Shown in pieces: positions 3,776 through 59,908 of a DNA stretch of 64,000 bases. The position numbers and the translations under genes are program-made. The DNA is taken from NCBI GenBank assembly GCA_963708045.1, contig OY970181.1, positions 67,740-131,739 on the forward strand, in the 5' to 3' direction. Position 1 is the first letter of the stretch; the number at the start of each line of letters is the position of its first letter. The stretch comes from an uncultured bacterium (GTDB taxonomy: Bacteria; Patescibacteriota; Patescibacteriia; CAIQCM01). The notes under the pieces were generated by a model. It worked only from the letters and a program-made list of their open reading frames with translations. It searched no databases and was not told the DNA's origin.

Positions 3776-3791
3776 ATTTAAAAAATATTTA

Positions 3792-3986
3792 ATATCTAAT
3801 GTCTAATATCTAATCCGACGACAGAGCACCGCATCAAATCTGTCATTGCGAGGAGTGAGTGGTAACGAATGACGCGGCAATCTCGCGAATATTGCAACCA
3901 TGGTGATATTCCGATGAGATTGCCGCGCTACCGCTCGCAATGACATTAAAAAAACTAAACGCTATACGCTAAACCCTAAACGCTAG
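3792..3986. mobile_element. MITE-like element: heptamer-repeat TIR (atctaat x3) + inverted pair of 'tgtcattgcgag...gcggcaatctc' palindromic units + ccctaaa/cgctaaa heptamer tail
   Basis: Seen in sequence. The left arm is atctaatgtctaatatctaatccgacg. Unit A (3839-3890) and the reverse complement of unit B (3895-3950) are near-identical. The right flank is ctaaacgctatacgctaaaccctaaacgctag. Confidence 0.6.
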
Positions 3987-5270: not shown

Positions 5271-5382
5271 TAGGGGTTAGGGTTTAGGGGCTAGGGGTTA
5301 GTTTATGAAACATGAAACACACAGCACGAAGCATTATTACCACCCCAATATCCATTGGAGTGGCTAGATGTTTCATAGTTCA
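5271..5382. repeat. Intergenic repeat: ccctaaa-type heptamer array (reverse orientation) followed by an atgaaac-heptamer inverted-repeat hairpin
   Basis: taggggttagggtttaggggctaggggttag, then tttatgaaacatgaaacac ... gatgtttcatagttcat. Confidence 0.6.
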
Positions 5383-9270: not shown

Positions 9271-10038
9271 ATGTCCACACTTGCAGACCTGGCAGCAGAA
9301 AACTTCGTGCAACTAGCCGCCAACAAATACCCTGGCCGGATCGTTTTCGCTGGCACGAGCTCTTGGGGCGCGATTCTCCAAGGACTCATCATCACCGTGC
9401 GCAGCAAGCCCAATCAGAATCGCGTCCTCGTTCCAGTGCCCGAGCCGAACCCTAACAACGAAGTAGGAACAGAGTTTGCCGACCCAGTTGCCGCCCACGG
9501 CGTTGATCCAACCAACATTCTCTACTTGGCGATGTCCGAAGATACCCACTCGTTCATAACGAGTAACGGCCAACATACCGCGATCATTTACTCAACGCAT
9601 CGCAACCTCGCCCTAGCCGACGGCCTTATGCAGGCCGGATGGAGGTATGAAGAGGACTCAGCTACAACGCCACGCATCGCCGTCCGCTCTTGGATCGGAT
9701 TGAATAATATCGTTCATACCCAATTCGCTGTTCTCAAAAAATCACTCTTTGACGACAGTGTCGTCGCGAACAACTTCCGCTACGACAACATTCCATCCGG
9801 TTTCGGTTTCTACATCTCAACCTACGAGCACGATGGCAATCCGCCACCTCCGTTCGTCGGCGAGCCGCGGCTGATTCCACTCATCGGATCTGATCTTGCC
9901 GACATCACCGACAGCCTCTGGAACGCTATGAGCCGCGACTATCGCGTGGCGATCGCGGTCAAAGAGATTGACCCCAAAACCTTCAAGTCGTGCACTCACA
10001 TCGTGAACCGCTTTCCAAAGGCTCCGACCGAGCCATAG
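9271..10038 (+). CDS. PurO-like (archaeal-type IMP cyclohydrolase family) protein, tentative
   Basis: The N-terminal GRIVFAG...ITVRSKPNQNR and the internal TPRIA motif resemble the PF07826 PurO pattern as recalled from memory. Local GC is up to about 62%, and the gene is flanked by repeat elements. Confidence 0.4.
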   Translation: MSTLADLAAENFVQLAANKYPGRIVFAGTSSWGAILQGLIITVRSKPNQNRVLVPVPEPNPNNEVGTEFADPVAAHGVDPTNILYLAMSEDTHSFITSNGQHTAIIYSTHRNLALADGLMQAGWRYEEDSATTPRIAVRSWIGLNNIVHTQFAVLKKSLFDDSVVANNFRYDNIPSGFGFYISTYEHDGNPPPPFVGEPRLIPLIGSDLADITDSLWNAMSRDYRVAIAVKEIDPKTFKSCTHIVNRFPKAPTEP

Positions 10039-10192
10039 ACTTACGAAGCAAACCCCTCGCAGACAGCGCGCCCGTCCAGTACGGCGCGCTGTTCTCTTTT
10101 GTCTATAAAAATAAAATAAATCAAGCTCATAACAAAACCTCCCATCTTTCTACGATCGTGGAAAGATGGGAGGTTTTAAAATTTAAAATACA

Positions 10193-11419: not shown

Positions 11420-12115
11420 TTACCAGCCTTTTTTGATAATTCCATTTTCCGCGGCTTTGACCTGAGCTTCTTGTTTAGAACTACCTTCGCCGTCGGCAAC
11501 AAATTCTTCGCCCAAATACACGCCAACTTTAAACCATTTATTATGATCCGGACCTTTTTCTTCAAGAACTTTATAGGACGGCGTAACGCCAGCCGTGTCT
11601 TGCGCCGCTTCCTGAAAGCGACTCTTGGGATCCAAATACAAACGATGTTCCAAAATATACGGCAACTTGACGAGGACGCGCTCGGTGCAGAATTTTTTTA
11701 CGGCATCATATCCCTTGTCTAAGTATATCGCACCAACGATCGCTTCAAAAGCGTTGGCTAAAATATATTGTCGCGCTTTGGTTCCCGCATCTTTTGATTC
11801 ACCACGCGAAAGATAAAGATAATCTTCAACGCCCAAGTCTTTGCAGATTCCCGAAAGCATTACCGCATTTACAAGCGCGGCGCGCCAATTTGTTAGATCG
11901 CCTTCGGGGTTAGGATAATTATTGTGAAGGTGTTCGGTTACAACAAGTTCAACGACCGCGTCGCCTAAAAATTCCAATCGTTCATTGTGACCAAGCCTAA
12001 AATCGGGATGCTCGTTAAGGTAGGAGCGATGAACTAGCGCTTGGGTTAAAAAATCAGGATTAGTAAACTTGACACCGAGTGTTTCTTCTAACCCGGAGAC
12101 ATCTTTGTCGGCCAT
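11420..12115 (-). CDS. rnc: Ribonuclease III
   Basis: The RNase III signature ERLEFLGDAV is present, with a C-terminal dsRBD. Confidence 0.92.
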   Translation of the reverse strand: MADKDVSGLEETLGVKFTNPDFLTQALVHRSYLNEHPDFRLGHNERLEFLGDAVVELVVTEHLHNNYPNPEGDLTNWRAALVNAVMLSGICKDLGVEDYLYLSRGESKDAGTKARQYILANAFEAIVGAIYLDKGYDAVKKFCTERVLVKLPYILEHRLYLDPKSRFQEAAQDTAGVTPSYKVLEEKGPDHNKWFKVGVYLGEEFVADGEGSSKQEAQVKAAENGIIKKGW

Positions 12116-12124
12116 ATCGGTAAA

Positions 12125-12208
12125 ATATCTAATGTCTAATATCTAACGTCTAATGAACGCGCCGAGGCCGTCCTTAGATTAGAAATTAAACATTAGATAT
12201 TGAAATTA
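12125..12208. mobile_element. Short MITE-like element with atctaat heptamer TIRs
   Basis: Left arm atatctaatgtctaatatctaacgtctaat, core gaacgcgccgaggccgtcc, right arm ttagattagaaattaaacattagatattgaaatt (inverted). Confidence 0.6.
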
Positions 12209-15629: not shown

Positions 15630-18094
15630 TTAGACAATGGTGACCGTGGACAGCGCGTCGTTTTCTTCCTTAAAGCGCATAATGCGAACGCCTTGGGTGG
15701 CGCGGCCGATCGTCCGAATCTCGCCCAAAGCCAAACGAATAACTTGGCCATGATTGGAGATCGCAACGATATCGCGTTCATCTTTGGCCGAAACAACAAA
15801 GCCGGTTACGATCTCGCCCGTCTTGGCCGTGACTTCGGCCGTCTTAATGCCGGAGCCGCCGCGCCCTTGCAAACGATATTCTTTCAAGTTAGTGCGTTTG
15901 CCAAAACCGTGCGCCATGACGACCAAAAGTTCCAGCAAATTCTTTTTTACTTCTTCGGAAGAAACAACGTCCATGCCGACAATGTAGTCACCGCGCTTTA
16001 ACTTCATTCCGCGGACGCCCGAAGCGGTACGTCCCATAGAACGAACATCTTTTTCTTCAAAGCGGATGGACATTCCTTTGCCGGTAATGATGACGATTTC
16101 GTCTTTGCCGGTTGAAGGACGAACATATTCAAGTGAATCCTGTTCGTGGAGTTTAAGCGCGATCAAGCCAGAGCGGCGAACTTGGGCAAATTCAGCGATC
16201 TCGGTTTTCTTAATCACACCCTCTTTTGTAATCATCACAAGATACTTAGCGTCGGGCATATCCGAAATCGGCAAAACAGCCGTAACTTTTTCGCTTGGCG
16301 CAAGCTGGAGGAAATTAACCAGTGCCTGTCCCTTGGCCGTTCGCGAGGCCGGCGGAATATCATATGCCTTAAGTTGGAAGACGCGGCCGCGCGACGTAAA
16401 GAAGAGAACATCGGCGTGCGTGCTCGTTGTAAACAACTGTTCAACCATATCTTCTTCTTTGGTCGCAACGCCGATCACGCCCTTGCCGCCGCGCGATTGG
16501 GCGTGGAACGTGTCCGGCGGCACGCGTTTTACATAGCCATCACCGGTAATAATGACAATCGTGGACTCATCAGGAATAACGTCTTCCATTGAAAATTCTT
16601 TAACCCCATGCGCGACGACTTGCGTCCGGCGCTCGTCGCCAAATTTGTCGCGAAGCCCAATGACCTCGTCGCGGACGATTTGCAAAATGCGTTTGGGCGA
16701 CGCCAAAATCGCCATCAGTTCTTTGATAATCTTTTTCTTTTCTTCAAGTTCGGTTTCAACCTTAATTCGTTCCAGGTTGGCAAGCTGCTGCAAGCGCATT
16801 TCCAAAATCGCAACCGTCTGCGCGTCCGAAAGCTTAAACTGCTTGATCAAATTAATCTTGGCTTCGTCTTTGTCCGTAGATTTTTTGATCGTCGCAATGA
16901 CCTTGTCAATATGAAGAATGGCAATGGATAATCCTTCCAAAATATGAGCCCGTTCTTTGGCGCGCATAAGGTCAAATTCGGTGCGCTTTCGGACAACGAC
17001 TTCGCGATGCTTAATATATTCTTCTAACAAAGTTTTTAAATTAAGCACGCGCGGCTGGATACCATCCACGAGCGACAGCATATTCACATGGAAAGTTTCC
17101 TGCAGCTGCGTCTGTTGGAACAAACGATTTAAAACTTTCTTTGGGTACGCGTCTTTTTTAAGTTCAATTACAACGCGCACGCCGTCCTTGTTGGACTCGT
17201 CGCGAATATCGCGGATGCCGTCAATTTTTTTGTCGCGAACCAGATCGGCGATTTTTTCCAAAAGCGTCGCTTTGTTTACCTGATAAGGAATTTCATTGAC
17301 GATGATCTTAAAAGCGCCGGCGCTATCTTCAACGATTTCCGTTTTGGCGCGCAAGTAATCGGCCCGCGACCAGTAACATAAGCCGAGAGAATTTCTTTCT
17401 TGTTATAAATAATGCCGCCGGTCGGAAAATCAGGTCCTTGAACAATATTGGTTAAATCTTCAACCGTTGAATCTGGCTCGTCAATAACTTTGACAATCGC
17501 GTTAGTAATTTCTGTCAGGTTGTGCGGCGGAATGTTCGTGGCCATGCCGACGGCAATGCCGACCGTGCCGTTAAGAAGCAAGTTGGGCAATTTTCCCGGA
17601 AACACCGACGGCTCTTTGTGCGAACCATCATAGTTCGGAATAAACGGAACCGTTTCTTTATCAAGATCAAAAAGAAGTTCTTCGGCGATCGGCGAAAGTT
17701 TGGCTTCGGTATAACGCATGGCCGCGGCGCCATCGCCGTCCATTGAGCCAAAGTTTCCTTGGCCATTCACGAGCGGATAGCGCATAGAGAAATCCTGCGC
17801 CATGCGCACCATTGATTCGTAAACCGCGGAGTCGCCGTGCGGATGGTATTTACCAAGCACTTCGCCGACCACAGTCGCCGATTTTTTGAATTTAGCGTTA
17901 GCGCGAAGGCCGATCGCCCACATCGCATAAAGAATGCGGCGATGCACTGGTTTCATGCCGTCTCTGGAGTCGGGAAGGGCGCGAGCAACAATGACTGACA
18001 TTGCGTAGTCTAGATACGACTCCTGCATTTCCGTCGTAATCTGCCGTTCGTTTATCTTACCGATAAGAAATTCTTTTGGTTGTTTATCACTCAT
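15630..18094 (-). CDS. gyrA: DNA gyrase subunit A, interrupted by an apparent -1/+1 frameshift near 17355-17375
   Basis: The N-terminal ORF (17276..18094) has the GyrA active-site region and ends in an out-of-frame tail (...[14 protein letters not shown]). The C-terminal ORF (15630..17354) begins [10 protein letters not shown], whose homologous sequence is normally contiguous with the N-terminal part. The +1 frame across the junction reads ...RAKTEIVED. Confidence 0.85.
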
Positions 18095-19140: not shown

Positions 19141-19250
19141 ATCTAGTAAGAGTGATTCTTTAATTTATTAAAATAATTATCCGCCGTAAAACGTCCTTTT
19201 TTGAGCTTATAATTTATCACAGCGAACCTTGTCTGGCAATGGATAAATTA

Positions 19251-19371
19251 CCTTGCGAGTTTTATTATTTTCCGCCTCAAAAATTTAATATGATTACCGC
19301 TTGCGATTTTTTGTCACTGGTTAATCTATGCCAAACGACCGTTTCGGCGGGAAATAATAAAACTCGCAAGG
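19251..19371. repeat. Hairpin element A: 26-bp perfect inverted arms around a 69-nt core (tcaaaaat...ttttttgtcac...cgtttc)
   Basis: The arms ccttgcgagttttattattttccgcc and ggcgggaaataataaaactcgcaagg are exact reverse complements. Confidence 0.7.
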
Positions 19372-19388
19372 TCGGGCTATAGATAAAG

Positions 19389-19522
19389 ATCGGCGACTTC
19401 CTCTTTTGTTATTTTTCACCTCAAAAGTCAGAAGAAACCGCCGTTGTGCAAATTGTCTAAATTGATTATTTTGTCATCAGCAATTGTTTCGGTGAAAAAT
19501 AACAAAAGAGGAAGTCGCCGAT
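19389..19522. repeat. Hairpin element B: 32-bp perfect inverted arms around a 70-nt core (tcaaaagt...ttgattattttgtcatcagcaattgtttc)
   Basis: The arms atcggcgacttcctcttttgttatttttcacc and ggtgaaaaataacaaaagaggaagtcgccgat are exact reverse complements. A terminator-like hairpin follows at 19540-19570. Confidence 0.7.
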
Positions 19523-19598
19523 AGAGACGAAAATGAGACGCGGCTGGAAAAACGAGTTTTCCAGCCGCTATGCGATGGGTGTCATTCGCGCCTCCGTC

Positions 19599-22931: not shown

Positions 22932-24775
22932 ATGAAAGCCCAATTAAAAAACATCATAATTTTTATCGCTGCCCTCGTCATTCTCGGTGTAATTTTTTCC
23001 GCCATCAATATGAATGCGGAAAAACCAACCAAGGTTGACTTGGTAAAACTTTCCGAGCAAGTAAAGAGCGAGCAGATTTCAACCGTGGTCATTAAGGGCT
23101 CAAGCATTGAAGCCACGACGACCGACAACAAAAAAGAGGTCGCGACCAAAGAAGACAGCGAATCATTTACCGACCTCATGAAAAATCTGGGCGTCGGCGA
23201 CGATAAACTGCAAAAAATTTCTCTTACCGTTTCCAACCCGAGCGGTTTTGAAAACTGGCTATCGCTTCTCATACCAGTTTTCCTTCCAGTCATTCTTATT
23301 GGCGTGCTCCTCTTTTTTATGATGCGCCAAGCACAGGGACAAAATATGCGCGCGATGTCGTTTGGCCAGTCTGGTGCGCGCGAAGTTGGGAAAGACAATA
23401 AAAACAAAATCACTTTTGCCGACGTTGCCGGCGCCAAAGAAGCTAAAGAAGAACTTTCCGAAGTTGTTGAATTTTTACGCCAGCCAAAAAAATTCGTTGC
23501 TGTTGGCGCCAAAATTCCTAAAGGCGTTCTCTTAATGGGGCCGCCGGGCACGGGAAAAACAATGCTCGCTCGCGCCGTGGCCGGCGAAGCCGATGTCCCC
23601 TTTCTTCATATTTCTGGTTCCGAGTTTGTGGAAATGTTTGTCGGCGTTGGCGCATCGCGCGTCCGCGATCTTTTCGCTCGCGCCAAAAAGAGCGCGCCGT
23701 GCATTGTCTTTATAGATGAAATTGACGCCGTTGGTCGTCAACGTGGCACGGGTCTTGGCGGCTCGCACGACGAACGCGAACAGACGCTTAACCAAATTTT
23801 GGTTGAGATGGACGGCTTTGACCCCTCCTTGGGCGTGATCGTTATTGCCGCTACCAATCGCCCCGACGTTCTTGATCCCGCCCTCCTTCGCCCCGGCCGT
23901 TTTGACCGCCGCGTCGTTCTTGACCTCCCTGATGTAAACGAACGCGAGGCGATTCTTAAGGTTCACTTTAAAGGCAAGCCGATTTCCGAAAATGTTTCTG
24001 CGAGAAAAGTTGCCGAGCGCACGCCCGGATTCTCTGGCGCCGACCTTGCTAACGTGGTGAACGAAGCCGCAATTCTTACGGCGCGTCTTAACACCAAAAC
24101 CGTAACCGAGGATTCGCTACTCACATCCATTGAAAAAGTAATGCTCGGGCCGGAACGCAAGAGCCGCGTCATTACCGAGGAAGAAAAGAAAATTATCGCC
24201 TACCACGAAGCTGGACACGCGCTGGTTTTCCACGAACTCCCCGCCGCTGACCCAGTGCAAAAAATTTCCATTATCGCTCGCGGGCACGCCGGCGGCTACA
24301 CGATTAAAATGCCGACGGACGATCGCCGACTCCGCACGCGCGGCAATTTCCTCGCCGACTTAGCCGGATCACTTGGCGGCTTTGTGACGGAACGAGAAAT
24401 TTTTGGCAACGACAAGCTTACAACCGGCGCTTCGGCCGACCTTAAAAACGCGACGCGCACCGCCCGCCGAATGGTTACCGAATTTGGTATGTCCGACGTC
24501 CTTGGCCCCAGAACTTTTGGCGAGCACGAGGAAATGATTTTCCTCGGTCGCGAAATTTCGGAACAGCGCGACTACTCGGAAAAAATCGCCGAGCAAATTG
24601 ACAACGAAGTAAGCGCGCTTATCCGCGCCGCCGAGAAAAAAGCCGAATCAATCATCAAAACCAAACGCGTTGTTTTAGAAAAAACTGGTGGAAACATTGC
24701 TTAAGAAAGAAACAATAGAACGCGAAGACTTTGAAGCCATCGTCGGCCCCAAAGCCAAGGTATAAAACAAATTCA
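22932..24775 (+). CDS. ftsH: ATP-dependent zinc metalloprotease FtsH, with an apparent frameshift in the A6 run at about 24677-24682
   Basis: An N-terminal TM, AAA+ Walker [12 protein letters not shown], and the zinc protease motif HEAGHAL. The annotated ORF stops at 24704. The +1 frame continues [26 protein letters not shown], which matches a typical FtsH C-terminus. Confidence 0.88.
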
Positions 24776-24796
24776 TACTCACAAACCCCCGCTTTA

Positions 24797-24826
24797 AGGC
24801 GGGGGTTTTGATTACTATCGTATCAT
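24797..24826 (+). terminator. Rho-independent terminator after ftsH
   Basis: aaacccccgctttaaggcgggggttttg. Confidence 0.75.
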
Positions 24827-24988
24827 CTAGAGGGTTTTATCGTATCGTTTTGATACGATTTTGGTTGAAGGTTTCGCCTCGACCAAAATGCGGTGGACGT
24901 CCGCTGTTCAACTACTGCCAAGCTAGTTATAACAAAAGCCCCATGTTCTCAACATGAGGCCTTCGATGAAACTTAACTAAAGAGCTGA

Positions 24989-25741
24989 TTACTTGCGACG
25001 ACGAAAGACGAAGCGGACGTCGGCACTCTGACGAGAGTCGGGGCTGCCATCGTCACTGCTCAACCAAAGTCCGTCATCGTCGCACCCAACGCTCCAGACC
25101 TTGAGATAGCTGCCCGTGTCAGTTGGTTCCATGGCTAGTATGAGCCACTCGCCTTTCGGTTGGTTAATGTACTTACGTCGCAGTTCGGGACCATCTTCTG
25201 GAAGACACAGGTCAAGACCCATTTCGCGACCTTTGTCGCATGTTTCTCGAAAAGTCGCCCCACTCGCGAATCCCAGTTCTGCGTTCGTAACCACGACTAA
25301 GGGAACGGTGGTTGTAGCAATATACTTGCTAAAAACAACGGTGTTCAGAAGATTGTTGGCCCAGTCACTGATCCGACGGCCGACTTGTACTAGGACGATG
25401 CGAAAACCGTCGGCGTCCTTCCTTCCGACGCTGTGGGTGATAGTTTTCCACGTCTTCCAAACACGGACTGGTTGTTCACGGACTGGTTGTTCAATGATCA
25501 AGTCAAAAACCCGATCCGCCAGCTTTGGCTCTTTGATAAGTCGTCTCAGATGTCCAATCGTGCCGTTGCGCTTTTCTAGCCCATGGACAACGACGCGGAT
25601 GAGCTCAAAGATGAATCCAATTACCGAGAGGAGTGTTCGCAAATTCCAATTCTTTTCTTTGCTTCTCATGACCCTGCTCTGCCTTTCTCTTGGCACACCC
25701 CTCATCCCGACACCACGCCGAGACATAGGGCTTGCCGACAA
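24989..25741 (-). CDS. Hypothetical protein, higher GC (about 63%); start uncertain (Met at 25741/25705/25669)
   Basis: A 250-aa ORF with one TM segment (LLSVIGFIFELIRVVV) and no recognisable family. Confidence 0.45.
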   Translation of the reverse strand: MSASPMSRRGVGMRGVPRERQSRVMRSKEKNWNLRTLLSVIGFIFELIRVVVHGLEKRNGTIGHLRRLIKEPKLADRVFDLIIEQPVREQPVRVWKTWKTITHSVGRKDADGFRIVLVQVGRRISDWANNLLNTVVFSKYIATTTVPLVVVTNAELGFASGATFRETCDKGREMGLDLCLPEDGPELRRKYINQPKGEWLILAMEPTDTGSYLKVWSVGCDDDGLWLSSDDGSPDSRQSADVRFVFRRRK

Positions 25742-25953
25742 CTAACAAAAATTGCAAAGGACACATTTTACTTTGTAAAAACAAAATAAAATGCGCACCT
25801 TCCAAAGGATTTTGACTTAATAATACATCATAGGAGCATGATTTTGTCAAAAATGTGTCCTTTAATTTTTTCATAAATTTTATTTAAAAACCCACAAAAA
25901 ACCTATTTATGATATAATGATTTAAACAAAAATTTTACTAACCATAGATCTTT

Positions 25954-27041: not shown

Positions 27042-27665
27042 GTGCCTACAGAAATGCGAGAAAAAATTCCCGGCGATCGCGTTCGTTATCTGCCGCCCGA
27101 CGGAACGGAAATAGAAAATAACTGGAAACTAATCCGTTACGAACCTGATTCGGGAAACGCGATTTTGGAACGCAATGCCACGCGCGTTAATGTGCCGCGC
27201 GAAAATTTTTTACTTTTAAATTTTCCCGGCAGTGATGACCTTTATCTTTGCCTTCAGAGCAGTATCGCTCGCGACCCCATGGCAACGAGCGCGATTAATG
27301 CTTGGAAAAACAACGATCTTAAAACCGTTAAACGCAATCTTACTGACATCATCAGCCGAAATGCGCCGGCGTTTTTGGGCATTCAAACCGCTTCCGATCT
27401 TTCGCAAAAACTTGTTGAACGCGAGGAAGCGATTGATAATTCAATGCGTATTCTCAAACTAGATATTGGCAGAGCCGAACAAGAATATAACCGCTTTGAA
27501 GCCAAAACAAACTTTGAGCGCGATAAGAAAGACAACCTCCTAATGCGTCTCCGCAACTTTCAAGATCAATACGCGACCAAACTTTTTGAAAAAAATAATC
27601 TTGTCCCCATTTGGCAAGAACTCTTTCGCGCCCTTTCGGCGATTGAATTTAAACTTAGAAATTAA
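27042..27665 (+). CDS. Hypothetical protein (207 aa)
   Basis: ORF only. The C-terminal half is predicted helical. Confidence 0.5.
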   Translation: MPTEMREKIPGDRVRYLPPDGTEIENNWKLIRYEPDSGNAILERNATRVNVPRENFLLLNFPGSDDLYLCLQSSIARDPMATSAINAWKNNDLKTVKRNLTDIISRNAPAFLGIQTASDLSQKLVEREEAIDNSMRILKLDIGRAEQEYNRFEAKTNFERDKKDNLLMRLRNFQDQYATKLFEKNNLVPIWQELFRALSAIEFKLRN

Positions 27666-27671
27666 CCTGCA

Positions 27672-27801
27672 AAGAAAAACCAGAAACCGCATTTTTTCAC
27701 CGAAACAAATTGACGATGAACAAATAATCAACCATTTTATTTAGCTTTAAGAATATATTTTCTAATTTTTGAGGTGAAAAAATGCGGTTCTGGTTTTTCT
27801 T
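27672..27801. repeat. Hairpin element C (opposite orientation): 29/30-bp inverted arms around a 71-nt core whose reverse complement shares ttgattatttgttcatcgtcaatttgtttc with element B
   Basis: Arms aagaaaaaccagaaaccgcattttttcacc / ggtgaaaaaatgcggttctggtttttctt, with one extra A in the left arm. Confidence 0.7.
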
Positions 27802-27852
27802 ATTCACACATCGCCTGACGGCGATTTTTTTGTTATACTGGCGGAAAGCAAT

Positions 27853-29574
27853 ATGGCAACAACCAAACCAACAATTGAAGAGATTCTCAAACGAAACGTG
27901 CCGATTTTAACCGATAAGCTGGATTCGGAGATGACGCAAGCGGAAAAAATCAGGGTGGAATTGGATGCGATTCGCTTAAAAGAAAAAGAAACCGAGACCG
28001 AACGAACGGCGGCCAAGCTCGGCCTGCCTTATGTTAATCTTTTTCGTTTCGCAATCGGCCCCGAAACAATTGCCACCATCCCCCAAGAACTGGCGGCCAA
28101 ACATTTCGTGGTTTGCTTTTTAAACACCGGCGCCGAAATCCGACTTGGCACAATTGATCCGTCGGACCCGGGTGTAGAAGAAATTCGTTATCAAATCGCC
28201 GAACGAACGCACTCCAACGTCGTTGTTTATTTTATTTCCGAACACTCGCTCGCCGCCGGTTATCGGCTTTATGAAACTCTTCCCGTCATTCACAAAGTTA
28301 CGCGCGGCGTGAATATTTCCGACGCCGAGATTCAGCGTTTTCACGATGTCCGCTCGTTTGACAAACTTCAAGCGGCGCTTAAAAACGCCAACATGACCGA
28401 CGTTGTCACGATTATCATTGCGGGCGCCCTTAACGCCCGCTCGTCGGACATCCACGTGGAAGCCGAAGAAAAAGAAACCTCTGTTCGTTTTCGCGTTGAC
28501 GGCGTCCTTGTCCGCGTCGCGACTTTGCCAGCAACAGACTGGCAACGAATGATTTCGCGCATCAAACTGCTTGCCAAATTAAAACTCAACGTCATTTCCC
28601 AACCGCAAGACGGACGCTTTAGCATTTTCCTAGAAAAAGAAAAAATTGACGTTCGCGTTTCCACCATTCCGACTGCTTTTGGCGAATCAATCGTTATGCG
28701 TATTCTTCGTTCCGGTTCGGCGCAAATCAAACTTGAATCCTTGGGCTTGCGCGCGCCGTATGACGCCCTTCTTAATCGGCAAATTGAACGCCCAAACGGA
28801 ATGATCATCACAACCGGACCGACCGGCTCTGGAAAAACGACGACGCTTTACGCTGTTTTGCAAAAACTTAATTCGCCGGACACAAAAATTATCACTCTTG
28901 AAGACCCGATTGAATACGAACTTGCCGGCATTAACCAGTCGCAAATTGACCACACCAAAGATTATACGTTTGCTAAAGGTTTGCGCTCCATTCTCCGCCA
29001 AGACCCCGACATTATTATGGTCGGCGAAATCCGCGACCTAGAAACTGCCGAGGTAGCGATTCAAGCCGCGCTCACCGGCCACCTTCTCCTTTCAACCATT
29101 CACACAAACGATGCCGCGGGTGCCATCCCCCGTTTTCTTTCTATGGGCGTTAAATCATTCTTGCTCGCGCCGGCGCTTAACGCGATTATCGGCCAGCGCC
29201 TATGCCGCACCATTCACGACAAATGCAAAACCGAAGCCAAGCTGGACGATGAAACGCTTGCCCGCGTTAAAAAAACACTCGCTGAAATTTCGCCAAAGTC
29301 GGGCGTTAAAGTTGATTTGAATAATTTACATTTTTACCGCGGCGCCGGTTGTGATGAATGCAACAACTTGGGCTACCTCGGACGCATTGGCATTTATGAA
29401 ATCCTCGCGATGAGCCAAGACATTGAAAAAGTCATTCTCTCGGGCGCGGTTTCGGAATATCAAATGCGCGACATCGCCAAAGAAGCCGGGATGATCACGA
29501 TGGCCGAAGACGGCTTGCTTAAAGCCCTAGACGGCTTTACCACCGTGGACGAAGTCTTCCGCGTGGCTGAATAA
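27853..29574 (+). CDS. pilB: Type IV pilus assembly ATPase PilB/GspE
   Basis: A T2SSE N-domain, Walker A GPTGSGKTT, and a tetracysteine motif CX2C...CX2C (CRTIHDKC ... CDEC). Confidence 0.9.
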   Translation: MATTKPTIEEILKRNVPILTDKLDSEMTQAEKIRVELDAIRLKEKETETERTAAKLGLPYVNLFRFAIGPETIATIPQELAAKHFVVCFLNTGAEIRLGTIDPSDPGVEEIRYQIAERTHSNVVVYFISEHSLAAGYRLYETLPVIHKVTRGVNISDAEIQRFHDVRSFDKLQAALKNANMTDVVTIIIAGALNARSSDIHVEAEEKETSVRFRVDGVLVRVATLPATDWQRMISRIKLLAKLKLNVISQPQDGRFSIFLEKEKIDVRVSTIPTAFGESIVMRILRSGSAQIKLESLGLRAPYDALLNRQIERPNGMIITTGPTGSGKTTTLYAVLQKLNSPDTKIITLEDPIEYELAGINQSQIDHTKDYTFAKGLRSILRQDPDIIMVGEIRDLETAEVAIQAALTGHLLLSTIHTNDAAGAIPRFLSMGVKSFLLAPALNAIIGQRLCRTIHDKCKTEAKLDDETLARVKKTLAEISPKSGVKVDLNNLHFYRGAGCDECNNLGYLGRIGIYEILAMSQDIEKVILSGAVSEYQMRDIAKEAGMITMAEDGLLKALDGFTTVDEVFRVAE

Positions 29575-30743: not shown

Positions 30744-30755
30744 TCTTTTTCAAAA

Positions 30756-30788
30756 TCTGCCCCGATAAATATCGGGGCAGATTTTTAT
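30756..30788 (+). terminator. Rho-independent terminator (ccccgat-NNNN-atcgggg class)
   Basis: tctgccccgataaatatcggggcaga + ttttt. The same loop motif recurs at 37540, 40205, 42870 and 57022. Confidence 0.75.
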
Positions 30789-37456: not shown

Positions 37457-37601
37457 TAACCAAGCGCACTCGTGTCTGCCTAACGCAGACGCGACAAAGA
37501 GCACGCTCTTTGCCACCGAGCGCGCTTTTTGTTTTAAACAAATCCCACCCCGATATATATCGGGGTGGGATTTGTTTATTATTTGTTTGCGATTTTATTT
37601 T

Positions 37602-39709: not shown

Positions 39710-40201
39710 ATGGCCAATTTTAAAAAAGGCTTTACCTTAATTGAGCTATTGGTTGTAATTGCAATCATCGGCCTGCTTTCAACAATCGCCGTTATCTCGC
39801 TTAGTAATACTAGGGTCAAAGCTCGGGACGCCAAACGCGCCGCTGATATGCGCCAAATATTGACTGCGCTTAATCTTTACCAAGACCAGTACGACTGTTT
39901 GCCAATTACCAACCTTTCCACTTGTCCGGGGAATGGTGGTTATAGTGAATGGAACGCGGGCGCGTGGGATTATAGTTCGCAGGGCGGATTCCTAACTTTT
40001 CTGCAAACGTCTGGAATTATGTCCAAGGTACCCGTTGACCCGATCAACAATATGACCGGCGACGGCACCCCCGCCGGCAGTTATTCTTATAGATATTTTT
40101 GTTATCCTTCTGGACCGCATTTGGTTTATTTTAGAGAGTCTGATTATACCCAGATCGGCGTACTCGTAACAGGAACCGACTCTGGTTACGTCTGCAAGTA
40201 A
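39710..40201 (+). CDS. Type IV pilin / pseudopilin
   Basis: The class III signal KKGFTLIELLVVIAIIGLLS is the canonical prepilin cleavage and methylation motif. Confidence 0.85.
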   Translation: MANFKKGFTLIELLVVIAIIGLLSTIAVISLSNTRVKARDAKRAADMRQILTALNLYQDQYDCLPITNLSTCPGNGGYSEWNAGAWDYSSQGGFLTFLQTSGIMSKVPVDPINNMTGDGTPAGSYSYRYFCYPSGPHLVYFRESDYTQIGVLVTGTDSGYVCK

Positions 40202-40329
40202 AAATACCGCCCCGATGGCCATCGGGGCGGTATTTTTATAATCTTGGGAACCGATAGTTGACCAGAAGAGGGTTTTCTGTTATGTTGTTCTGAACAAAAT
40301 CGCCAGTAACGATTTTGGGGGAGGAACAA

Positions 40330-41617: not shown

Positions 41618-41867
41618 TACCACTTCGGTGGTGGGCGTTTTTATTTTTTCTTGTTTTCCGATCAAACCAAGAGCGTTCCTTTTTCTTCCAACTTTTCCCG
41701 ATCGGGAAAAGTTGGAAGAAAAATATTTTAATAAAATTATCAAGAATGTCCACTATAACGGCAAACTGGCATAGCCACTTATTTGGATAAACAAAAAACC
41801 ACCCCGATTAAAGGTTGATCTTTTTTTGCTGAGCCGATCTCAGTCAAAATAGGTAAGCCAAGTTTGT
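41618..41867. repeat. Inter-cassette junction copy 1: terminator + palindrome/AT-box module M1a (41683-41747) + module M2a (41790-41867)
   Basis: M1a is about 90% identical to 42785-42848. M2a is about 85% identical to 43700-43777. Confidence 0.7.
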
Positions 41868-42727: not shown

Positions 42728-42848
42728 CTGCCACTTCGGTGACGGGCGCTTTCTTATATAAACAAAATCGGGAATATTTATTTTTTCTTCCAACTTTTAC
42801 CGATCGGTAAAAGTTGGAAGAAAATATTTTAATAAAATTATCAAGAAT
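42728..42848. repeat. Inter-cassette junction copy 2: terminator + M1b
   Basis: ccacttcggtgacgggcg ... ttcttccaacttttaccgatcggtaaaagttggaagaaaatattttaataaaattatcaagaat. Confidence 0.7.
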
Positions 42849-43699: not shown

Positions 43700-43777
43700 T
43701 AACAAAAGACCACCCCGATTAAAGGGTGATCTTTTTTGCTGAGCCGACCTCGGTTCAAGTAGGCAAGCGAAGTTGAG
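43700..43777. repeat. Module M2b, adjacent to the tRNA-Glu 3' end
   Basis: taacaaaagaccaccccgattaaagggtgatcttttttgctgagccgacctcggttcaagtaggcaagcgaagttgag. Confidence 0.7.
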
Positions 43778-43813: not shown

Positions 43814-43888
43814 TAGCCCCAACCGGATTCGAACCGGTGTACCCAGAATGAAAATCTGGTGTCCTAGGCCGGACTAGACGATGGGGCC
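43814..43888 (-). tRNA. tRNA-Glu (anticodon TTC)
   Basis: The minus-strand fold ggccccatcgtctagtccggcctaggacaccagattttcattctgggtacaccggttcgaatccggttggggcta has anticodon loop ttTTCat and T-loop ttcgaat. Confidence 0.85.
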
Positions 43889-47681: not shown

Positions 47682-47760
47682 ATGAAACATAAAGCATAAA
47701 ACACGAAGCACTCTTGCGTCCCCGCGGGACGTCCGGATGCTTCATGGTTCATGCTTCATG
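47682..47760. repeat. atgaaac-heptamer inverted-repeat element in nrdD 5' region
   Basis: aatgaaacataaagcataaaacacgaagca ... ccccgcggg ... gcttcatggttcatgcttcatg. Confidence 0.6.
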
Positions 47761-47770
47761 CCAAATACAT

Positions 47771-49921
47771 ATGACCGAACTTTTAGTAGTAAAACGAGAC
47801 GGCGAAAAAATTCCGTTTGATAAAGAATTTATCGTGAGCGCCGTTACCAAAGCCGCCGAAGCAACAAACGAGTTTGGACCGACCGAAGCGCGTAAGATTG
47901 CCGAGATGGCCGCCCATTTTATTGCTAAATCTAAAAAAATGGCCGAAACGATTGCTGTTGAAGAAATCCAGGACATTGTTGAATTTACTATAATGAGCTC
48001 TGGGCACTTTAAAACCGCCCGCGCTTACATTGTTTACCGCGAACACCGCGCCCAATCCCGCGCCGCCGGCGCCGTGGCGGTTGAAGTTGAAAAGACGATT
48101 AATGAATATTTGCAACAATCCGACTGGCGCGTCCATGAAAACGCCAACCAAAGCTATTCCTTGGGCGGCATGATTCTTAATACTTCTGGCAAGCTGACCG
48201 CTAATTACTGGTTACATCACGTTTATCCGCGCGAAGTCCGCGAAGCACATCTTGAGGGTGATTTTCACATCCATGATCTTTCTATGTTCTCCGGCTATTG
48301 CGCTGGCTGGTCACTGCGACAACTCTTAGAGGAAGGCTTTAACGGCGTTCCGGGCAAAGTTGAATCCGCTCCGCCAAAACACTTAGAAACAGCTGTCGCC
48401 CAAATGGTCAACTTCCTTGGCACTTTGCAAAACGAATGGGCTGGCGCGCAAGCTTTCTCATCTTTTGACACGCTCCTCGCGCCGCTTATTAAAAAAGATA
48501 ATTTGGATTATGACCGCGTTAAGCAGTCGGTTCAACAATTTGTCTTTAACCTTAATGTTCCGTCCCGCTGGGGCACTCAGACGCCATTTACCAATATTAC
48601 GCTTGATTGGGTCTGTCCCGACGACCTAAAGCCGCAACATCCCAAAATTGGTGGTGTTGAAATGCCTTTCACCTACAGCGACTGCCAAAAAGAAATGGAT
48701 ATGCTGAACAAGGCATATATTGAGGTTATGACTGCTGGCGATTATCGCGGCCGCATTTTTACCTTTCCTATTCCAACCTACAACATCACAAAAGATTTTA
48801 ATTGGGACGATGAAAAAGTTAAGCCATTGTTTGAAATGACTGCCAAGTTTGGCACGCCCTACTTCCAAAACTTCATCAATTCAAATTTAAACCCCTCGGA
48901 TGTGCGTTCTATGTGCTGTCGCCTGCAGTTAGACCTGAGACAACTCCGCGCCAAGGGTGGTGGCCTGTTCGGTTCTGGCGAAATGACCGGCTCGGTCGGC
49001 GTTGTTACTATTAATATGCCACGCATCGGCTACCTTTCGCGCACGGAAGCGGAATTCTTTGAACGTCTCGGACGGCTTATGGAGATTGCCAAAGAATCGT
49101 TGGAAATAAAGCGCAACGTTGTAACCGACAGCATTGAACGCGGGCTATTACCATTTACCAAGCGCTATTTACCATCCCTGCACAACCATTTTTCAACAAT
49201 CGGGATAAATGGAATGAACGAAGCTTGTTTAAACTTCCTTGGCAAAGACATTTCAACGTCAGAAGGTAAAGAATTCGCCTTACGCGTTATGGAGTTTATG
49301 CGTAATCGCCTGACCGACTTCCAAGAAAAAACCACCCACTTCTATAATCTGGAAGCAACGCCGGGCGAAGGAATTACCCACCGTTTTGCCAAAGAGGATA
49401 AAGTTCGTTTCCCGGGTATTATTCAGGGCGGCGTTCATGACGCGCCTTACTACACCAATTCCACTCACCTACCAGTTGATCACACGAGCGACCCGCTTGC
49501 AGCATTGGATCACCAAGACGAACTGCAAACTAAATACACTGGCGGCACCGTGCTCCACCTCTTTATGGGCGAACGCGTGACTGACTGGGAAACCTGCCGC
49601 GACTTTGTAAAACGCGTTGCCGAAAATTACCGCCTCCCCTATTTCACCATTACTCCAACCTTTAGCATTTGTCCGACGCATGGTTATCAAAACGGCGAGG
49701 TTCCTGTCTGTGGCGTATGCGGAACGAAGAACGAAATTTGGTCGCGTATTGTCGGCTACTACCGCCCGACCGAGGAATGGAATCACGCAAAAAAGAGCGA
49801 GTACGCCGAACGCGTTGAATACACCATTCCCGCCGCAATCGCTTATGAATGCGAAACTGCTCCTGTCGCTTCCGTTGTTTCTTCCGAATCTGTCAGCGTT
49901 CCGACACAAAGCAACATATAA
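47771..49921 (+). CDS. nrdD: Anaerobic ribonucleoside-triphosphate reductase (class III)
   Basis: An N-terminal ATP-cone, the C-terminal zinc ribbon CPTHGYQNGEVPVCGVCG and the glycyl-radical motif RIVGYYRP. Confidence 0.9.
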   Translation: MTELLVVKRDGEKIPFDKEFIVSAVTKAAEATNEFGPTEARKIAEMAAHFIAKSKKMAETIAVEEIQDIVEFTIMSSGHFKTARAYIVYREHRAQSRAAGAVAVEVEKTINEYLQQSDWRVHENANQSYSLGGMILNTSGKLTANYWLHHVYPREVREAHLEGDFHIHDLSMFSGYCAGWSLRQLLEEGFNGVPGKVESAPPKHLETAVAQMVNFLGTLQNEWAGAQAFSSFDTLLAPLIKKDNLDYDRVKQSVQQFVFNLNVPSRWGTQTPFTNITLDWVCPDDLKPQHPKIGGVEMPFTYSDCQKEMDMLNKAYIEVMTAGDYRGRIFTFPIPTYNITKDFNWDDEKVKPLFEMTAKFGTPYFQNFINSNLNPSDVRSMCCRLQLDLRQLRAKGGGLFGSGEMTGSVGVVTINMPRIGYLSRTEAEFFERLGRLMEIAKESLEIKRNVVTDSIERGLLPFTKRYLPSLHNHFSTIGINGMNEACLNFLGKDISTSEGKEFALRVMEFMRNRLTDFQEKTTHFYNLEATPGEGITHRFAKEDKVRFPGIIQGGVHDAPYYTNSTHLPVDHTSDPLAALDHQDELQTKYTGGTVLHLFMGERVTDWETCRDFVKRVAENYRLPYFTITPTFSICPTHGYQNGEVPVCGVCGTKNEIWSRIVGYYRPTEEWNHAKKSEYAERVEYTIPAAIAYECETAPVASVVSSESVSVPTQSNI

Positions 49922-50713: not shown

Positions 50714-50730
50714 ATTTTAAATTTTAAAAA

Positions 50731-51032
50731 TATCTAATATCTAATCCGACGAAACATCATCATCAAAGATTGTCAGCTTTTTCGGCGTCATCCCGAGCGA
50801 AGCGAGGGAACTCAAAGTCTCTAGGCAAGCTCCGTGATTCCTCGCCCTGGACAAACCGACCTCACAGGCTCGGAATGACGGCGGGGTGTTTGACGTCATC
50901 CCGAAGAGCCGAAGCGATGAGGGAACTCAACGTCTCTAAGTCGTCTGCGAGATCCCTCGCCTTGGACAAACCGACCTTACAGGCTCGGAATGACGGCGAA
51001 CGGATTAGACATTAGGTATTAGATATTAGGTA
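50731..51032. mobile_element. MITE-like element (about 300 bp): atctaat-heptamer terminal inverted repeats flanking two tandem about 100-bp imperfect palindromes of the 'gtcatcccgagcgaagcgaggg...gctcggaatgac' type
   Basis: Left TIR tatctaatatctaatccgacg; right TIR cggattagacattaggtattagatattaggta. A single-unit copy in inverted orientation sits at 58585-58759. Confidence 0.75.
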
Positions 51033-51084
51033 TTCATCGGGTGACTATTGTTCACGACAATGATCCGTTATAGAATATAAGAAT

Positions 51085-56916: not shown

Positions 56917-57129
56917 CACGCAAAAACCCTCTCCCGGCCTTCGGCCAGCTGAGCTGGCCTGCGGACCACCCTCCCCCATTTTTGGGGGAGGGTTTTAAAA
57001 ATACGAAGCCGCATCTAACAAAAACCGCTCCGATAAATATCGGAGCGGTTTTTGTTAGTAAGTATTAAGTATATTTATACCGTCGCAAACAACAACTAAT
57101 TTAATTATTCCTTAAATAAATTAAACAGA

Positions 57130-58584: not shown

Positions 58585-58759
58585 AAATATCTAATTTTAC
58601 GCCGTCATTCCGAGCCCGTAAGGTCGTTTTGTCCAGGGCTCGGCCGAGCTCAGCTCGGCGAGGGATCTCGCAGACGACTTAGAGACGTTGGGTTCCCTCA
58701 TCGCTCCCACTCTTCGGGATGACGCCAGAGGATTAGATATTAGGTATTCATAATCACTC
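58585..58759. mobile_element. Single-unit copy of the 'gtcattccgagc' palindromic MITE with atctaat/attagatattagg flanks
   Basis: gccgtcattccgagcccgtaaggtcgttttgtccaggg ... gggatgacgccagaggattagatattaggtattc. Confidence 0.7.
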
Positions 58760-58788: not shown

Positions 58789-59832
58789 TTAGTCTACGGA
58801 AACACTCCACTCATTTTCCATCTCAACAATCTTTCCTTTAACAACAAACCCTGCGGCTTTGCGGTGGCCACCGCCGCCCCAGCGGAGTGCTTCGGCTGCG
58901 ACGTCAATGTCTTCGCGTGCTGTGCGCAAGCTCCCCTTTATCGTTCCGTCGTCGTTTTCGCGCAAAACCAAAACCGTTCGCGCTGGGAGGACACTGTTTA
59001 AAAAATTAGAAAGACCACCAAGGGCGTCTTCGTCTATGCAAAGCAAAGCCGTTTCTTCGGCGTAAAGAACGGTGGAGGCGCGACCAAGATCGGTGTTGTA
59101 CTTTAATCGCTCTAGCGCTTTACCCCAAAGCGAGAGTGATTCTATGGATTTATTTCTAACAACCAGACGGGAAACAAAATGGCGGTCGGCGCCGAGCGCT
59201 TCTAGGCGCGACGCGACGGCGAGCGATTCGGCAGTTGTCGCCGGATTAAAAAACATCATCGTATCGTGAATAACGCCGGCGAGCATATTTGTTGCCGCGT
59301 CCTCGGAAGCGGTATGACCAAAACATTCGTAGACGCCAAAAATAATTTCGGTCGTAGAAGCGGCCGTCGGAATTACCAAATTCACATCGCCAAAAAATTC
59401 GTTAGCGCCGTGATGGTCAATATTAACAATAAACGGACGCGGTGAAAGCGAAGGAATCACCTTATCCATACCGGCGAACTTTAAATCGCTCGCGTCCAAA
59501 ACCACGATAGCGTCAGCGTTAGAAAAGACGCCAAGGTCGGCGGTAAACTTTTTGGAATTTGGCAATTCCACAAGCGACAATGGAACCGGATCGGACGAAA
59601 AACAAGCCACAGTTTTGCCTCGTTTTTCTAAAAGGTCGGCGAGCGCCAGCGCCGCGCCAAGCGTGTCCGCATCAGGCCGACGATGTGAAACCGTAACAAT
59701 TCGGTTGGCTTTGTTAAGCGCCGAAACGACCGCGTTAAATTGAATCGTGTTTGAAGTCATCCAGACACAATACGGCCATATTTTTGCCTTGTCAATGGGC
59801 GGCCTTTGGCCGTAAAATGAAACATGAAGCAC
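58789..59832 (-). CDS. nrnA: DHH/DHHA1 phosphoesterase (NrnA-like oligoribonuclease/pAp phosphatase); likely start at 59757
   Basis: The DHH motif region (VSHRRPDADTLGAA) and the C-terminal DHHA1 GGGH motif are present. The N-terminal extension of the ORF overlaps a repeat element. Confidence 0.75.
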   Translation of the reverse strand: MLHVSFYGQRPPIDKAKIWPYCVWMTSNTIQFNAVVSALNKANRIVTVSHRRPDADTLGAALALADLLEKRGKTVACFSSDPVPLSLVELPNSKKFTADLGVFSNADAIVVLDASDLKFAGMDKVIPSLSPRPFIVNIDHHGANEFFGDVNLVIPTAASTTEIIFGVYECFGHTASEDAATNMLAGVIHDTMMFFNPATTAESLAVASRLEALGADRHFVSRLVVRNKSIESLSLWGKALERLKYNTDLGRASTVLYAEETALLCIDEDALGGLSNFLNSVLPARTVLVLRENDDGTIKGSLRTAREDIDVAAEALRWGGGGHRKAAGFVVKGKIVEMENEWSVSVD

Positions 59833-59902
59833 GCAACATGAAACATCACCATCCCGCTTCGCGGGGTTAATGTGTTTTATGCTTCATGTTTCATGCTTCA
59901 TA
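59816..59902. repeat. atgaaac-heptamer inverted-repeat element between nrnA and smc
   Basis: aaatgaaacatgaagcacgcaacatgaaacat ... cccgcttcgcgggg ... tgcttcatgtttcatgcttcat. Confidence 0.6.
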
Positions 59903-59908
59903 CCTTAT

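Follow-up and report, generated by a model that had tools for sequence, protein, structure and literature searches.

Element C, a 130-base hairpin at positions 27672-27801 of the 64,000-nucleotide stretch of DNA that we analysed (the window), looks from its sequence context like an inserted repeat and not like a dedicated switch of the neighboring pilB gene. Our tentative reading, held with confidence a little short of even, is a MITE-like foldback insert that is specific to the lineage and conserved in its inner stem and loop ends, and it would belong to a small family of foldback repeats of about 125-135 bp in Patescibacteria-like genomes. Its inverted repeat has arms of 30 and 29 nt with one indel (29 matched pairs and one bulged A) around a 71-nt loop. 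The left arm (27672-27701, + strand, AAGAAAAACCAGAAACCGCATTTTTTCACC) consists of a copy-specific outer 20 nt and the family-conserved stem core TTTTTTCACC (27692-27701, +), and the right arm (27773-27801, +, GGTGAAAAAATGCGGTTCTGGTTTTTCTT) consists of the core GGTGAAAAAA and a copy-specific outer part that ends in TTTTTCTT. The loop, or core (27702-27772, +), is conserved at its ends and poorly so in its middle, which has no consensus fold; the conserved pieces, all on the + strand, are GAAACAAATTG at 27702-12, TAATCA at 27725-30 and TTTTTGA at 27766-72. The RNA fold of the element has an energy of -44 to -46 kcal/mol, with z from -8.2 to -9.1, and none of 200 shuffles was equally stable. A second match to the full arm was found neither in the window nor in 100 shuffles.

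The element is preceded by a 207-aa ORF without family match (27042-27665) and followed by pilB (27853-29574; T2SSE, E = 2e-121), whose ATG is 52 nt away. An earlier note on this DNA had described a third, inverted copy of a hairpin family located between a hypothetical gene and pilB, and this description holds for the arms of 30 and 29 nt, for the two siblings A and B on the opposite strand and for the genes on both sides. The same note had aligned the reverse-complemented core with that of B over about 30 nt; the similarity in fact reaches somewhat further, with 70.5% identity over 88 nt. In copy C only, GAGGTG-N5-ATG opens a 42-codon hydrophobic ORF (MRFWFFLFTHRLTAIFLLYW...) at 27782-27910 (+), which runs into pilB out of frame. 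This small ORF was rejected as a family feature and is probably due to chance, because the other copies (A, B and the one on the metagenome contig L056, see below) have no start codon at that place.

The position of element C was compared with five syntenic relatives (L053, L054, L106/107, L105 and L104, with PilB identity of 89, 80, 74, 73 and 71%, respectively); more distant PilB homologues that bear names are labelled Patescibacteria or Falkowbacteria. Gene order is shared: gyrA is followed by a small ORF, a metallo-beta-lactamase-fold gene, some intervening genes, S1, FtsH, a 325-aa gene and a gene of about 200 aa, after which comes pilB. Within about 78 kb of the relatives in total, no copy of the hairpin family was found at the pilB site, at the A/B site or elsewhere, and short "empty" spacers precede pilB between the called genes in L054 (53 bp), L104 (61 bp) and L106 (16 bp). 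On the other hand, a compact terminator followed by TTTTTG before pilB is kept in all five. In the window this terminator is the hairpin ATCGCC-TGAC-GGCGAT with a T-tract (27810-27825, +), separate from element C and downstream of it, and it is followed by the extended -10 TGTTATACT of pilB (27831-39, +; 13 nt before the ATG). The extended -10 (TTATACT; TGnTATACT) is kept in L053, L054, L104 and L105, that is, in the four relatives read further than L106, whose sequence read ends at TTTTTG. The arrangement of a terminator directly followed by TTTTTGTTATACT is seen at window 27810-27839, L053 9955-9990, L054 9957-9989, L104 about 9945-9980 and L105 about 9505-9535, and is kept across 46-64% G+C.

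By this comparison, the terminator and the extended -10 are a predicted terminator/promoter module of pilB shared by the window and four relatives. Element C sits between the stop codon of the 207-aa gene and the conserved terminator, and since the relatives lack the element and the pilB module is downstream of it, it would be a lineage-specific insert at this place. Judged from the order of these signals, element C is outside the 5' UTR or leader of pilB, whose predicted promoter follows the terminator, and apparently is not part of the ancestral control of pilB. Extra termination of read-through from the upstream gene, or its cleavage by RNase III, is possible and would be incidental.

The same spacers carry other sequences in the relatives. 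The TTGCCA-N17-TAAATT promoter and the terminator that flank the A/B site recur in L053, where an unrelated segment of about 90 nt separates them; at the pilB site, L053 has a different insert, composed of a GTCATCCCGAGC...GGCTCGGAATGACGGC repeat and GTTCAT heptamers, and runs of GTTCAT heptamers occur at both sites of L053. Because relatives carry other, different inserts there, the spacers at the pilB and A/B sites would be insertion hot spots, and the hairpin elements would be lineage-specific.

Several other features of these loci were noted. A repeat of about 100 nt ending in GGCTCGGAATGACGGCG occurs in the window as a tandem pair (50804-50883 and 50919-50998) and as an inverted copy 7.7 kb away (58600-58727), and in L053 at 9707-9811, where it is the insert upstream of pilB (GTCATCCCGAGC...GGCTCGGAATGACGGC). 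Heptamer runs, often as inverted pairs, occur in intergenic spacers. Their units are CTAAACC, which equals that of plant telomeres, TCTAATA/G and ATGAAAC/GTTCAT. In the window they are found at 55-78 and 3948-3985; at 3784-3828, 12124-12204, 50724-50759, 51004-51037 and 58730-58753; and at 5305-5334, 47682-47772 and 59817-59914. In L053 they recur at about 580-640 and about 9915-9950. In L105 a different hairpin with an 18-bp perfect stem and a 75-nt loop (9552-9662) lies between the pilB promoter and the ATG, and its 3' arm contains the ATG of pilB; unlike element C, it could sequester the translation start of pilB. The gyrA gene of the window (15630-18094, -) is read as two overlapping ORFs (15630-17354 and 17276-18094) and the relatives have one 821-aa GyrA; a frameshift, an error in the sequencing or a pseudogene may account for the split. 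Between ftsH and the gene of the 325-aa membrane protein is a variable segment (24705-25953) with a 250-aa ORF (24989-25741, -) that is absent at that position in L053, L054, L104 and L105, preceded by a hairpin with a 14-bp stem and an 80-nt loop (25756-25863). As a possible mobility gene this ORF was rejected: Pfam, NCBIfam and PDB gave no match for it, and the family motif is missing from its flanks. A duplication of about 75 nt with 84-95% identity is present at 41790-41864 and 43701-43774, 1.9 kb apart, the second copy being just ahead of a tRNA gene (43814-43888, -).

The two siblings of element C are A (19250-19372, -; arms of 27 nt with 26/27 paired, one T.G; loop of 69 nt), which has the most diverged core, and B (19389-19522, -; arms of 32 nt, 32/32 paired; loop of 70 nt). 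They are in tandem with a linker of 16 nt, and B is flanked on one side by a terminator (19540-19568) and on the other by the promoter TTGCCA-N17-TAAATT, which belongs to the metallo-beta-lactamase-fold gene. The three window copies are clustered within 8.5 kb, and a core profile detected only these three in the window and, with the relatives and L056 included, just four copies. Both chromosomal orientations are represented in the window. Relative to the flanking genes, A, B and C are oriented alike; GA then adjoins the stem on both strands, which by inspection of the sequence permits tandem G.A pairs.

Conservation among the copies is concentrated in 9-10 bp of the loop-proximal stem (TTTTTCACC/GGTGAAAAA) and in the loop ends (TCAAAAGTC and GCAATTGTTTC). 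The consensus of the stem core, taken from A, B and reverse-complemented C, is TTTT(T)C(A/C)(C/G)CC pairing with GG(T/C)G(A/G)(A/G)AAA, and that of the loop ends is TCAAAA(G/A)T(C/T) and (CAA)TTGTTTC, neither end being an inverted copy of the other; a short TGATTA motif is also conserved in the loops. C and B are 75.6% identical over 45 nt at the GTTTC end and 88% identical over 17 nt at the TCAAAA end, and the loop middle shows 15-50% identity between copies. Together, the stem core, the loop ends and the middle make up a conserved unit of about 90 bp within repeats of about 125-135 bp. The outer 18-23 nt of the arms agree between copies about as expected by chance (2-5/19 identical, but 9/18 for A and B), and despite this divergence the arms within each copy pair at 96-100%. 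Stem cells are paired in 93% of cases against 54-59% with slid partners, and the observed covariation was reached by none of 500 shuffles. RNAalifold, run in either orientation, predicted the closing stem alone, in which 11 of 18 pairs are compensated; an inner consensus fold was not obtained. The stems are nearly perfect in Watson-Crick terms, with few mismatches and hardly any G.U pairs, and the fold of one strand is about as good as that of the other.

No Rfam family fits the hairpin elements: over the window, three tRNAs alone passed the gathering threshold of Rfam 15, and at E <= 10 the elements matched only generic plant or animal miRNA-precursor models, on both strands and at less than half the gathering score. 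Some narrower candidates were also rejected. CUGAUGA in B, suggestive of a hammerhead, is not conserved and is without Rfam support; TGTTTCGGTGAAAAA, read as parS-like, is one base short and non-palindromic; and a replication-linked orientation does not agree with the GC skew, which is negative throughout the window.

Outside the window, one further copy was found in the JGI metagenome scan, at positions 296-422 of the contig L056, which has 55% G+C and carries uvrABC, mraZ and mraW. Its locus is unrelated: the copy is between a terminator and a TTGACA-N17-TACAGT promoter, antisense to the flanking genes, and the nearest homologue of the adjoining gene is 44% identical. Compared with B, the junctions are identical over 17 and 21 nt, and the middle is only 38% identical and has drifted toward the G+C of the host. 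The junction motifs are identical across two genomes that differ in G+C (46% vs 55%).

Exact-motif scans that demanded a gap of 45-75 nt, by which a full-length autonomous element would be missed, gave 52 matches in one genome per species of 185,579 species, all of them chance matches without flanking stems, and eight matches in the JGI metagenomes, among which L056 alone is genuine. The full pattern had no match in IMG/VR. There, the left junction word had 36 matches, none with the partner motif GGTGAA within 140 nt or with flanking arms, and many of these look like a ribosome-binding site with a start codon on the opposite strand (GAGGTGAAAAA-ATG). A single match, in unrelated sequence, was obtained with the right junction word. 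BLAST against plasmids and phages gave nothing relevant. We also considered the arms as "spacers" and rejected this, with second copies in the window and the relatives limited to chance words of 11-12 nt; the arms of A and B had no match in IMG/VR, and a 19-mer of arm C occurred there in three unrelated phage-contig contexts without extension past the word. So few true copies are unusually rare for a mobile repeat, which counts against the MITE-like reading.

Nevertheless, the presence of multiple intergenic copies (three in the window and one on L056) and their absence from five syntenic relatives are in line with a MITE-like insert, as are the other repeats inserted into the same spacers and the hairpin families that different genomes have in common. 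The elements would behave as non-autonomous inserts in short intergenic spacers beside terminators and promoters, each bringing a conserved unit of about 90 bp with the 9-10-bp inverted repeat TTTTTCACC...GGTGAAAAA, loop ends that are asymmetric and a middle with little conservation. The outer 18-23 bp of the stem, which are particular to each copy, may derive from a local palindrome, for example a terminator-type hairpin, into whose center the unit was inserted, or their complementarity may be maintained by templated correction from arm to arm. Copy C would have entered the 3' region of the 207-aa gene, ahead of the terminator/promoter module of pilB. Its co-transcription with the upstream gene would give a perfect dsRNA of about 29 bp followed by a U-tract, which may be a substrate of RNase III (encoded at 11420-12115) or add some termination, as with the Correia/NEMIS elements of Neisseria.

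The family resembles bacterial MITEs whose transcripts fold into hairpins, such as Correia/NEMIS, ERIC and RUP, in being intergenic repeats of 100-150 bp with long inverted-repeat arms, which are present or absent by lineage, lie near promoters and terminators and can give substrates for RNase III upon co-transcription. In Correia/NEMIS, ERIC and RUP, the copies agree in their terminal inverted repeats and show a target duplication (TA for Correia). Here, by contrast, each copy has its own outer arms, a duplication is not seen and very few copies are known. Ordinary MITEs likewise have conserved terminal inverted repeats, whereas the outermost arms of the present family are variable (2-5/19 identical); its termini differ between copies, and no consistent direct repeat or target-site duplication flanks the hairpins. 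Neither a transposase nor an autonomous partner was found in the window, and no autonomous element with matching ends was found in the window, in the fetched loci or, by either junction word, in IMG/VR. On the side of the MITE-like reading, the adjacent ORFs without known function matched neither Pfam nor NCBIfam, and no Rfam family reached its gathering score. Against it, the two loop ends lack an inverted relation to each other, and the near-perfect Watson-Crick stems with 11/18 compensated pairs would also fit selection on structured RNA or ssDNA.

Insertion into palindrome centers is known for IS1397/ISKpn1, which target the loops of REP/BIME, and for the IS110/IS1111 family, which targets REP or attC. 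Such targeting would explain a conserved unit between differing self-complementary host flanks; however, those elements are full-length and carry transposase genes, and here neither such a gene nor an uninterrupted target palindrome was found. When the unit is removed, the arms of C and L056 resemble the A-tract/GC-stem/T-tract terminator palindromes of the genome and those of A and B are not terminator-like; an uninterrupted version was not found for any arm palindrome. With the intrinsic terminators of this genome, C and L056 have in common an A-tract/GC-rich stem/T-tract form, seen in their outer arms. These terminators have loops of 0-8 nt (3-8 nt in intrinsic terminators generally) against 69-71 nt in the window elements, and element C has a separate compact terminator after it, the hairpin at 27810-27825 being the only one that the terminator scan reports there. 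A U-tract follows the stem in copy C and not in A and B; therefore, termination is not a family property.

Other palindromes and hairpins occur in these genomes. The window contains perfect palindromes of 35-48 bp at 10134-10177, 37535-37578, 40199-40238, 41680-41723 and 42780-42827, and also at 30751-30785 and 57019-57053, which differ in their arms and share the center (CCGAT..ATCGG or CGATCG), with A- and T-tracts flanking; they probably are bidirectional terminators with a conserved apex. L056 and L054 share another hairpin family with arms ACCCCGCACCTTTGG, and hairpin repeats are therefore shared across these genomes. This second family (L054 4245-4365, 5000-5115, 14191-14312 and 17491-17617; L056 12409-12526 and 12749-12870) is absent from the window and shows the opposite pattern, with conserved outer arms (ACCCCGCACCTTTGG or ACCCCGTTAGAAAAA) and unrelated loops of 78-95 nt.

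A family of structured small RNAs is an unlikely alternative to the MITE-like insert. The stem core and the loop ends would be a platform for protein binding and the long stem would only have to pair, as in an orphan stem-loop guide RNA related to the tigRNAs of TIGR-Tas or in an sRNA released by RNase III. The strong covariation described above, the tandem arrangement of A and B, the shared orientation of the window copies to their flanking genes, the possible tandem G.A pairs and the junction motifs kept between genomes of 46% and 55% G+C all speak for it. TIGR-Tas stem-loop arrays are common in CPR bacteria, and their stems are variable yet always palindromic (Faure et al., 2025, PMC12045711), with only a few nucleotides beside the box C/D motifs conserved (PMC12045711; Xu et al., 2026 preprint, 10.64898/2026.09.09.750476). 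The present elements show this pattern of conservation confined to the loop-proximal stem with the rest divergent: the palindromic stems are variable, a conserved core of 9-10 nt is beside the loop, and units occur in tandem. In both systems, tandem hairpins of Patescibacteria have conserved loop-end motifs round a variable middle.

On the other hand, the tigRNA loop opens with box C, a spacer A of 8-12 nt and box D, continues through a loop and closes with a second box C, spacer B and a second box D, the C and D motifs occurring twice as CCA/UG or CUU/UG, and Tas, whose gene lies beside, around or overlapping the hairpins, is a Nop-domain protein resembling the C-terminal part of IS110 proteins (PMC12045711). 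We searched six-frame ORFs of the window, L053, L054 and L056 with an HMM of seven Tas sequences (Table S1, PMC12045711) and phmmer, and no Tas protein was found (best E 1.1-2.8), nor a Nop or IS110-like protein in any frame (best E about 1-3). PF01798, PF02371 and PF01548 had no match in about 55 ORFs, and NCBIfam had none. A Tas gene is thus lacking over 19-36 kb to either side of the hairpins, and L056 has none. In the four aligned cores, in both orientations, a repeated box pair was absent, as were a CCA/UG or CUU/UG box, a 9-12-nt spacer and a box periodicity; the supposed "spacers", which are the stem-adjacent segments, are partly conserved between copies and not variable. Furthermore, the loops are about 70 nt (69-71 nt) against about 40 and are without consensus inner fold, the stems are of 27-32 bp, and the copies are scattered (2 + 1) and form no array beside an effector gene. 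No consistent promoter was found across the copies, with no hexamer pair recurring at a matching place, and on L056 the copy runs antisense to the genes around it. The near absence of G.U pairs and the equal folding of both strands also disagree with a structured RNA. Since there is neither a Tas gene nor the box C/D-spacer pattern, the element, on the evidence available, appears to resemble a stem-loop tigRNA in its stem pattern without being a member of TIGR-Tas. It is quite unlikely, though worth stating, that the elements are a new class of Patescibacteria sRNA with a build like that of stem-loop tigRNAs, in which a long stem is free to vary, a 9-bp stem core is conserved and the conserved loop ends are asymmetric and may form tandem G.A pairs, acting as an orphan or trans-acting guide or scaffold with a partner protein that is encoded elsewhere and is not a recognizable Tas, in which case the variable parts would be generated and not decayed.

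Very unlikely, in our view, is a site that works at the level of DNA, whether for recombination, inversion or protein binding, as a duplex or in extruded or single-stranded form, with the inner inverted repeat as the binding site. Strictly Watson-Crick stems that are symmetric on both strands, a short conserved inverted repeat with sequence-specific flanks and copies in both chromosomal orientations would suit such a site, but the window yielded neither a recombinase nor an integrase, a segment of only 70 bp would not invert easily, and GC skew indicates no origin or terminus nearby. The layout of integron attC (RYYYAAC ... GTTRRRY) was also not found, for its conserved boxes are at the base of the hairpin and here the base is variable and the apex-proximal part conserved, and GTTTCGG misfits GTTRRRY.

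A regulatory hairpin for pilB, acting as bidirectional terminator, antiterminator or 5' regulatory RNA as the earlier note had proposed, is the least probable reading and is unsupported: element C is 52 nt from the ATG of pilB and, with its stem followed by TTTTTCTT and preceded by an A-tract on the + strand, has the look of an oversized bidirectional terminator, but the five relatives are without it and all keep the terminator, four also showing the extended -10, in a module downstream of C, while the other copies (A, B and L056) have no pilus genes nearby, A and B are without U-tracts, and a 71-nt loop is atypical of intrinsic terminators.

Finally, the local biology of element C is ordinary. 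If it is only a foldback insert, the value of this result is negative: pilB control in the clade would rest on the conserved terminator and extended -10 module, and the hairpin should not be annotated as a riboregulator. The family itself is unusual, with the inside of the hairpin conserved, the outside variable and the pairing kept, a pattern that requires insertion at palindrome centers, templated correction from arm to arm or selection on the folded nucleic acid. The same pattern has newly been described for stem-loop guide RNAs of the same bacterial group, and the cause of its maintenance could inform the origin of units with variable stems.
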